Source: Escherichia coli
Lineage (GTDB): Bacteria > Pseudomonadota > Gammaproteobacteria > Enterobacterales > Enterobacteriaceae
Assembly: GCF_051903065.1 (NCBI RefSeq)
Contig: NZ_CP178438.1
Strand: one strand, 5' to 3'
DNA length: 64,000 bases
Shown in pieces: positions 18,760 through 19,318 of this stretch. The notes below the pieces were generated by a model. That model saw only the letters and a list, made by a program, of their open reading frames with translations. It did not search any database and was not told where the DNA came from. The position numbers were made by a program, and so were the translations under genes. Every line of letters starts with the position of its first letter. The stretch's first letter is position 1.

Positions 18760-18946
18760 TTTGCAATATCTATGAATTATTTGTGAGACGTATATTAATG
18801 AACATTGCAAGGGCTCACAACCAGTAGTGTTGAGAAAACTATCGGGTAAATGAGGCTAATCCTTTGAATTTACATAGTAAAAAAGATACTTTTCCTCATA
18901 GTGTGAGCTAATTTTATGTTTCGTTTGATGATCGGACCGGTCTCAA

Positions 18947-18983
18947 AAACCGCAGGCACGTTGTATGCAAGAACGTGCTGTGG
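18947..18983. repeat. repeat B, degenerate copy of repeat A
   Basis: AAACCGCAGGCACGTTGTATGCAAGAACGTGCTGTGG; about 36 of 41 positions match repeat A by hand alignment. Confidence 0.45.
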
Positions 18984-19318
18984 CTGGCTGGTGAACTTCC
19001 AATAGTGCGAATATTGAATGATTTCTATCTGTTATAGATTTTACCGTATTTCGGCATGAATGAAACTGAATATCCTCCCACCGATTCTCCATGACTTTAC
19101 GCCACTGTCTCTAGGGCTGCTATGTGCCAGAGGCGGACGTTGTTAAAATAGAAAATATCCCAACCTTGTATGAGTCGTGCAATAATTTCGAACTTTATAC
19201 AAAGCTTTGGTTGTAAAGGTGTATAACCACAAGTGACATTAATCACATTTGTAAAGGCAAAATGCAACAAACTGAATTAGTTAATTGCGTAAATTTGAAG
19301 TTATGTTAAGGTGGTGAT

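Follow-up and report, generated by a model that had tools for sequence, protein, structure and literature searches.

The spacer at positions 18760-19318 of a 64,000-nucleotide stretch of Escherichia coli DNA (contig NZ_CP178438.1; the whole stretch is referred to as the window) lies between a leftward gene encoding the GIY-YIG endonuclease PD-T4-3 and the non-coding RNA (ncRNA) and gene of a rightward retron. Our analysis suggests that this spacer is probably a recombination-scarred junction in a prophage cargo hotspot, in which two independent promoters lie apart with a relic of a backbone terminator between them. The unusual feature of the spacer, its length, is explained by ordinary prophage mosaicism, and a conserved element of the prophage backbone, here named X, is present but is not specific to these genes. 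The segments, with their flanking genes, are as follows.

17986-18759, minus strand: PD-T4-3 (CMoRE), GIY-YIG endonuclease gene
18760 to about 18933, minus strand: module A, the own 5' region of PD-T4-3
18820-18815 (-35, TTGTGA) and 18797-18792 (-10, TAATAT), minus strand: predicted PD-T4-3 promoter, start at about 18785
18934-18952, plus strand: relic of a class II tRNA-Ser anticodon arm, anticodon CGA mutated to CAA
18950-19146: element X, a dispersed repeat
18950-18983: hairpin copy 2 (the X1 hairpin)
18984-19044, minus strand: X1 conserved block, 61 nt, invariant core TATTGAATGATTTC..GATTTT
19045-19146, plus strand: X2, running into a ydfV-like open reading frame (ORF) in other contexts (loci L006 and L117)
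19056-19094, plus strand: mini-ORF of 12 codons, MNETEYPPTDSP
19119-19284, plus strand: retron-specific leader, 165 bp, overlapping the last 20-28 bp of X2
19285-19290 (-35, TTGCGT), 19304-19305 (extended -10, TG) and 19307-19312 (-10, TAAGGT), plus strand: predicted retron promoter
19317-19451, plus strand: msr-msd ncRNA, with a2 (GGTTTATGGGCA) at 19319-19330 and a1 (TGCCCATAAACC) at 19440-19451
19471-21306, plus strand: type I-C retron gene of the Ec67/Eco2 family, a reverse transcriptase (RT) fused to a Toprim domain

According to the model that we favor, two defence cassettes would have been acquired independently to the left and right of a stretch of lambdoid backbone, downstream of a tail-fibre/pin invertase module. 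This would have left, from left to right, the PD-T4-3 promoter and 5' untranslated region (UTR), the tRNA-Ser scar, X, the retron leader and the retron promoter. PD-T4-3 and the retron would each be expressed from their own promoter without shared control, and the X hairpin would insulate PD-T4-3, with leftward transcription stopping before the PD-T4-3 promoter. The X1 block would persist as a homology anchor for the exchange of cassettes between lambdoid prophages and/or as the 3' end of a leftward dinI/int operon. We infer this use of the promoters, the termination and the recombination route from the comparisons presented below.

Distribution and boundaries of the segments

When 18760-19320 was compared by BLAST with 5426 complete E. 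coli genomes, a match was found in 1050 of them and the whole stretch in 8, and the classes of matches covered the query from 1 to about 196-209, from about 171 to 392, or both. Module A accompanies PD-T4-3 at 92-100% identity in about 1000 of the E. coli genomes and is common to all 73 usable viral contigs that encode PD-T4-3. Copies of X are found in 5407 of the 5426 genomes (median of 3, and up to 9, per genome), and 19130-19284, within the retron leader, has no match in this set other than with this retron. The retron together with 350 bp upstream is found in 18 genomes, always with at least 99.7% identity. Because each segment has its own distribution in other genomes, we take the spacer not to be a dedicated shared control region. 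There is no sign of shared regulation: the two genes are adjacent in 8 of the 5426 genomes and occur apart in about 1040 (PD-T4-3) and about 10 (retron).

The boundaries of the segments were located by local BLAST against fetched loci. Positions 17300-18955 match EDL933-type loci, 18947-19146 match several unrelated contexts, 18952-21350 match a locus with a DUF262 gene in the place of PD-T4-3, and 19119-21350 are 99.5% identical in Qin-like lambdoid prophages, in which the retron lies between a DUF977 gene and hokD. The sequence from 18760 to 19118 is absent from these Qin-like copies of the same retron. Among the 73 viral contigs with PD-T4-3, homology is lost at 18955 (24 contigs), at 18968 (24), at approximately 19044-19050 (10) and at approximately 19143-19158 (14).

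One of these boundaries carries the scar of a tRNA gene. In EDL933-type loci (L144, approximately 1270-1340), module A is directly followed by the 3' two-thirds of a class II tRNA, comprising the anticodon loop CU-CGA-AA (Ser), the variable arm, the T arm and the CCA end, and the Rfam tRNA-Sec model aligns with its anticodon, variable and T arms (25.6 bits, E 0.009). The same two-thirds follow module A in 24 of the 73 viral contigs. What is left in the window is 19 nt, joined at AAAACCG to hairpin copy 2, and ARAGORN detected no intact tRNA in the window. Judged by its sequence, the tRNA piece at this island junction is a remnant of the integration-site (att) type. An integrase gene is located further along in EDL933 (L005, 6530-7711).

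The locus is located at the end of a prophage tail module, after baseplate genes, tail-fibre genes, inverted tail-fibre assembly genes and the pinE invertase gene. The cargo directly after pinE varies and includes PD-T4-3, DUF262, a restriction endonuclease, a HEPN protein and the retron, and X is found 5' of varied cargo as well (a restriction endonuclease, a HEPN protein, a peptidase and hypothetical proteins). In strain 2014C-3075 the order is pinE, the GIY-YIG gene and a gene annotated as "retron Ec67 family", while in strain TOE3 X directly follows pinE, an arrangement that looks like the state before PD-T4-3 was inserted. At the other end of X, a ydfV pseudogene called by the Prokaryotic Genome Annotation Pipeline (PGAP) starts within the right end of X2 in a related locus. 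Because the left junction of the retron cassette (19119) falls in the start of the ydfV-like sequence both here and in the Qin-like prophage, and because ydfV is followed by relB, relE and hokD on the K-12 map, it is suggested that recombination in ydfV-like sequence carried the retron from one prophage to another. Two different prophage types hold the same retron, which has a ydfV-like tag of 20 bp at its left end.

These segments account for the size of the spacer. An earlier note, made from the sequence alone, had described the spacer as an unusually long, AT-rich stretch of about 560 bp without an ORF of 60 or more amino acids, longer than its two promoters would need, and each part of this description held. 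The distance from the PD-T4-3 ATG to a2 of the retron ncRNA (19319) is about 559 bp, and the full gap between the two coding sequences, from the ATG of PD-T4-3 (18759, not 18760) to the GTG of the retron gene (19471), is 711 bp. The longest ORF in the spacer has 57 amino acids (TTG start, minus strand) and the next has 49. The stretch from 18811 to 19470 (660 nt) is the longest in the window that is free of ORFs of at least 60 amino acids, the runner-up having 366 nt; its left end is at 18811, since the PD-T4-3 frame reaches 18810 when read from a TTG start. The GC content is 0.374 in 18760-19318 versus 0.524 across the window, and the retron gene is equally AT-rich (0.30-0.40). A long piece of ORF-free DNA 5' of PD-T4-3 is usual in this family of loci: in the 73 viral contigs, the first ORF of at least 80 amino acids is found at a median distance of 470 bp and at most 827 bp. 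In strain 2014C-3075, whose locus is 99.95% identical, PGAP annotates nothing between the GIY-YIG and retron genes. Of the excess over what two promoters need, about 200 bp are X and about 20 bp the tRNA scar, with the leaders of the two cassettes adding about 175 and 165 bp. The length of the spacer is not to be taken as a sign of extra regulation.

The backbone element X

The proposal in the earlier note that the spacer may hold additional regulatory elements stood in part. A conserved non-coding element with a covarying hairpin is present, but X is generic lambdoid backbone, found in lambda and HK97 as well, and not a regulatory device of this gene pair. For its analysis, viral contigs were scanned with a pattern for the invariant core of X1, which gave more than 120 loci, and together with the loci collected earlier 92 distinct copies were aligned. 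RNAalifold gave a poor consensus for these copies, due to a bulge in the alignment, and the hairpin was then specified by hand. Compensatory changes were found at 10 of its 13 pairs (64 cells), and 90% of the cells were paired. The observed values were reached in none of 500 shuffles, and slid controls paired in 22-51%.

The X1 hairpin is a likely candidate for an intrinsic terminator of leftward transcripts. Its stem is followed on the minus strand by at least five U in 43 of the 92 copies, compared with none of the 92 on the plus strand, and in the window the minus-strand stem (18983-18950) is followed by UUUUU (18949-18945). A consensus terminator scan did not call this hairpin. Another copy of it (hairpin copy 1, 17936-17963) comes just past the stop codon of pinE (17926-17928), in the gap where pinE and PD-T4-3 converge; the two copies are 89% identical in alignment and form the direct repeat D1, so that PD-T4-3 and module A are flanked by two copies of one hairpin. 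Copy 1 has a predicted fold of -26.9 kcal/mol (z -4.8) and a partial match to the Rfam family CssrB over the hairpin only. When 17500-22000 was scanned against Rfam with E values up to 10, only CssrB fragments on the two hairpins and chance matches were returned, and the CssrB scores (32.4 and 15.2 bits, over the hairpins only) did not reach the gathering score of 76. The CssrB model, which describes a Shigella small RNA (sRNA), matches at 17906-17962 and at 18930-18982 through its terminal hairpin only. The Shigella CssrB RNA probably ends at a hairpin of this X1/pinE family.

The conserved block next to the hairpin is even less variable, with a mean column identity over the 92 copies of 0.94 versus 0.85 for the hairpin. 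In many prophages, a dinI-like gene on the minus strand has the block as its 3' flank, and its stop codon lies 9 nt away in about 30 of 86 distinct contexts; this ORF of 82 amino acids belongs to the DinI family (NCBIfam PRK10597, E 2e-20, under the curated cut-off). Because of the dinI-like, HK97 and lambda contexts, X1 is best described from its surroundings as the conserved distal end of the lambdoid leftward int/dinI/b-region unit, at the place where the rightward tail-fibre/pin genes meet it. In the literature on CssrB, on ea47/ea31 and terminators, and on ribosome profiling of lambda, no description of X was found. A second helix within the X1 block (GGCTGG/CCAGCC) was considered and no support for it emerged. 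A likeness of the minus strand of the X2 consensus to a tRNA T arm (GGAGGTGCAAATCCTCT) was also rejected: no tRNA was called by ARAGORN, either in 9 loci or in the window, and the window variant does not have the motif. One copy of X1 lies in the chromosomal ykgJ-ecpE intergenic region (L001, 12731-12845) beside a decayed dinI-like frame, apparently all that remains of an old prophage end; an Rfam scan of this copy gave, as in the window, only CssrB fragments and chance matches.

The two defence cassettes

The PD-T4-3 gene was identified by PADLOC over its full length (E 2.4e-140) and encodes a Pfam LEM-3 GIY-YIG domain, and its protein is nearly identical to CMoRE, for which a structure has been solved (PDB 9u75, E 3.7e-172). 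CMoRE is a type IV restriction endonuclease that acts on DNA with 5-hydroxymethylcytosine or glucosylated 5-hydroxymethylcytosine, and the native promoter of PD-T4-3 from O157:H7 was reported to be enough for defence (PMC12923530).

The earlier note had placed both divergent promoters in the spacer, and candidate -35 and -10 elements were predicted there for both genes. A strict consensus scan for promoters and terminators gave no calls in the spacer, and candidates for both genes were obtained when a position-weight scoring of our own was then used. The predicted PD-T4-3 promoter has a score of 9.0 and the predicted retron promoter 7.1. Of the two, only that of the retron is backed by conservation, since the 80 viral PD-T4-3 loci that were returned all encode proteins of 99-100% identity and include no diverged homologues by which conservation of the PD-T4-3 promoter could be gauged. 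A promoter-like site at 18864-18892 in module A points right, from PD-T4-3 toward the hairpin, without a gene to serve; an RNA from it would be about 85 nt in length and end at the hairpin.

The retron was compared with six loci whose RT-Toprim proteins are 73-80% identical to that of the window. All seven aligned loci share TTGC in the -35 element and TG-TA---T in the extended -10 element without change, although the sequence around them differs and that further upstream is unrelated. The start of transcription is predicted at about 19317-19319, and the extended -10 promoter would start the msr-msd-RT transcript at about 19317. The msr-msd region, which is the a1/a2-bounded candidate of the earlier note, has a predicted fold of -43.3 kcal/mol (z -3.6), with the 12 bp of a2 and a1 paired in the minimum-free-energy fold, and a1 ends 19 nt 5' of the RT start codon. 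The candidate branching G (19331), immediately after a2, is invariant in the seven loci. Eco2 has its branching G at position 15 (PMC12916289), and a start of transcription at 19317 would put G 19331 at position 15 as well. The msr-msd sequence (19317-19451 in the window; approximately 2850-2985 in L137-L142) is nearly invariant in the seven loci, in comparison with 73-80% identity for RT-Toprim, so that the ncRNA is more conserved than the protein. Its variation is concentrated in the central msd. The RT-Toprim fusion, the sole protein of the retron, was identified by PADLOC as RT-Toprim_I-C (E 3.9e-222) and matches the Retron Ec67 protein in PDB (E 5.8e-137). In other loci, PGAP gives the same retron gene a shortened or split N-terminus (L008, 4500-6176; L010, 4533-6176; L009, 4342-4503 and 4500-6176), which suggests that these copies may be frameshifted and perhaps inactive.

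The conservation in homologous islands that the earlier note had asked about was thus found for the retron promoter and for X, which are kept elsewhere, but not for the sequence 5' of the retron promoter. Nothing 5' of the -35 element is kept in the six homologues, and 18760-19284 is not regarded as part of the retron unit. The leader itself is 99.5% identical wherever this retron occurs, including the Qin-like prophage. It contains a 10-bp palindrome, CAAAGCTTTG (19200-19209), two copies of TTGTAAAGG (19211-19219 and 19249-19257), and a 9-nt sequence, ATTAATCAC (19239-19247), that one group of homologous retrons also has, about as far from a2. The leader is not conserved 5' of the six retrons with RT of 73-80% identity, and a conserved function for it was not detected. 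In a construct, PD-T4-3 with about 190 bp of upstream sequence, or the retron from about 19280 on, should each suffice alone.

To the right of the retron, a minus-strand IS1 (21351-22118; Pfam IS1 transposase) begins 30 bp before the right end of the retron cassette as bounded by comparison with L001, L007 and L009. In the window, betA and betB directly follow IS1 (to 25560), whereas the otherwise identical locus of strain 2014C-3075 continues with an integrase fragment, yagU, ykgJ and the ecp operon, a difference suggestive of a deletion or rearrangement associated with IS1.

Alternative explanations and related systems

Several observations do not fit easily with a simple mosaic junction. 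All of the promoters are predictions, the strict consensus scan was negative in the spacer, and the top-scoring promoter-like site in the spacer is the plus-strand site in module A described above (TTGAAT 18864 / TACTTT 18887, 17-nt spacer, score 10.1), to which no role is assigned. The minus-strand fold of the hairpin copy in the window is unexceptional in comparison with shuffled sequences (z -0.9). The retron leader (19119-19284) is always inherited together with this retron, and a lineage-specific function for it is possible. Furthermore, the near-invariance of the X1 block (94%) in contexts without dinI or sib hints at selection for some function, and the role of the block as a recombination anchor may be a consequence of its conservation rather than its cause.

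This near-invariance also speaks for the most serious of the alternatives, which we nevertheless consider unlikely, namely that X encodes a minus-strand sRNA, perhaps trans-acting, that ends at the hairpin and the U-run (18950-18945). In prophages with dinI, such an RNA would be the end of the 3' UTR of the dinI-like mRNA; here, its promoter would lie inside X or to the right of it. The highly conserved block adjoins a covarying hairpin, begins 9 nt past the dinI-like stop codon in about 30 contexts, and is followed by a U-run on the minus strand only, with five U in the window copy. However, the conserved unit does not include this U-run, which is weak or missing in about half of the copies. 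An invariant TAAAAT (minus strand, 19043-19038) resembles a -10 element, but it has no conserved -35 element; a leftward promoter-like site is found at TTGCAC 19182 / GATATT 19159 (score 9.3). Against this reading, no dinI-like gene is located upstream on the minus strand in the window. There is a precedent in DinR, which is liberated from dinI's 3' end, although the authors of that work describe the dinI 3' UTR as variable and the pairing region of DinR as Klebsiella-specific (PMC10907235). In addition, no Rfam family matches beyond the hairpin, and the lambda copy lies inside the leftward ea31-ea47 stretch and not at the end of a transcript. More generally, there is a small chance that X1 is an undescribed functional RNA element of lambdoid phages, either an sRNA derived from a 3' end or a signal for processing or termination in the leftward dinI/int/b-region operon, and the copy in the spacer could still give rise to RNA, with effects on host targets or on the defence genes beside it. 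The residual interest of this locus lies in the strong conservation of the X1 block from lambda to cryptic prophages. If X1 is an RNA element, existing E. coli transcriptome and Hfq-interactome data sets already hold the answer.

A weaker alternative, which we regard as improbable, reads X on the plus strand as a promoter and leader for downstream cargo, here the retron. Transcription would start at about 19047-19049 from TTGAAT (19014) with GATTTT or TAGATT, and the Pro-rich upstream ORF of 12 codons (19056-19094) would modulate read-through into msr-msd-RT. No copy departs from TTGAAT and GATTTT, the site has a position-weight score of 8.0-8.4, and in several loci plus-strand cargo genes start 68-89 nt past X2. 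In an alignment of 12 copies, (A/G)TG at 19056-19058 is invariant, and a Pro-rich ORF of 12 codons is usual in copies with X2. However, the -10 element is poor, the retron has a conserved promoter of its own, and in about 30 contexts a convergent dinI-like gene lies head-on, where only antisense RNA would result. The mini-ORF lacks a Shine-Dalgarno sequence, the commonest variant has lost its stop codon, and most substitutions in the mini-ORF are non-synonymous. We give still less weight to a small protein gene hidden in the spacer (the ORFs of 49 or 57 amino acids on the minus strand, or of 29-30 on the plus strand), which we consider very improbable. ORFs of 20-57 amino acids are present, and lambda-type and other records carry short "hypothetical" or "capsid fragment" calls over X, made by PGAP or by depositors, but PGAP calls nothing in the identical locus. 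Among copies, indels of 1 nt in a T-run shift the frame of the 49-amino-acid ORF (minus strand, 18943-19092), which was therefore rejected; the 29-amino-acid ORF (18916-19005) crosses the tRNA relic and meets an early stop in L004; and the ORFs of 57 and 30 amino acids lie in the lineage-specific leader without homologues. Least probable of all, in our opinion, is a co-evolved bidirectional control region for both defence genes, for example with a regulator or an operator in common. In its favour, the genes are divergent neighbours in 8 genomes, the region is AT-rich, and the retron leader has short repeats and a palindrome. On the other hand, the genes are separate far more often (about 1050 and 18 genomes, versus 8 with both), the DNA between them is generic backbone of nearly all E. 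coli and of lambda, and the retron would be working from the same leader in the Qin-like context without PD-T4-3 nearby.

The junction of independently acquired cassettes, which remains our preferred explanation, can be compared with several known systems. In the b region of the lambda-type phage E26 (L223, 3501-3691), X1 and X2 lie between ea47 and ea31, aligned at about 80% and with the same right boundary as in the window. In HK97 (L224, 2501-2598), X1 is found at 88% between tfa and sib/tI, abutting the annotated sib site, and the X1 block is 190-300 bp from the att core and int. Neither the lambda-type nor the HK97 phage record annotates a function for X. In the window, by contrast, X is flanked by defence cassettes and not by ea genes or sib-att-int, and its left edge is fused to the tRNA-Ser relic. 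The retron resembles Retron Eco2 (Ec67), of type I-C (a promoter, then a2-msr-msd-a1, then RT-Toprim), in its ncRNA bounded by a1/a2 repeats, the G after a2 and its single RT-Toprim protein; however, the window protein is only distantly similar to that of Ec67 (460 bits over about 490 amino acids), its ncRNA is of another lineage, and the 165 bp 5' of its promoter are lineage-specific.

For X1, the closest parallel is DinR, an Hfq-dependent sRNA excised from the Klebsiella dinI mRNA's 3' end (PMC10907235). In related prophage loci, X1 similarly has a conserved sequence and a terminal hairpin immediately after the stop codon of a dinI-family gene, but the window has no dinI, and the likeness is one of position. 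Hotspots for defence genes and morons are found at prophage ends, for example after the invertase genes gin of Mu or pin of e14. The variable cargo directly after pinE is like these, a likeness that describes the location and not a mechanism for the spacer. In lambdoid phages, mosaics have been traced to relaxed homologous recombination over short diverged homology (De Paepe et al. 2014, PMC3945230). Here too, the breakpoints are sharp, at the AAAACCG junction, in the X1 block and in the ydfV-like sequence of 20-28 bp, and the segments are a few hundred base pairs in length; the difference is that the cargo consists of anti-phage defence genes and that the recombination events are deduced from their products. 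The locus is a clear example of defence cassettes exchanged in a prophage hotspot at short conserved backbone sequences.

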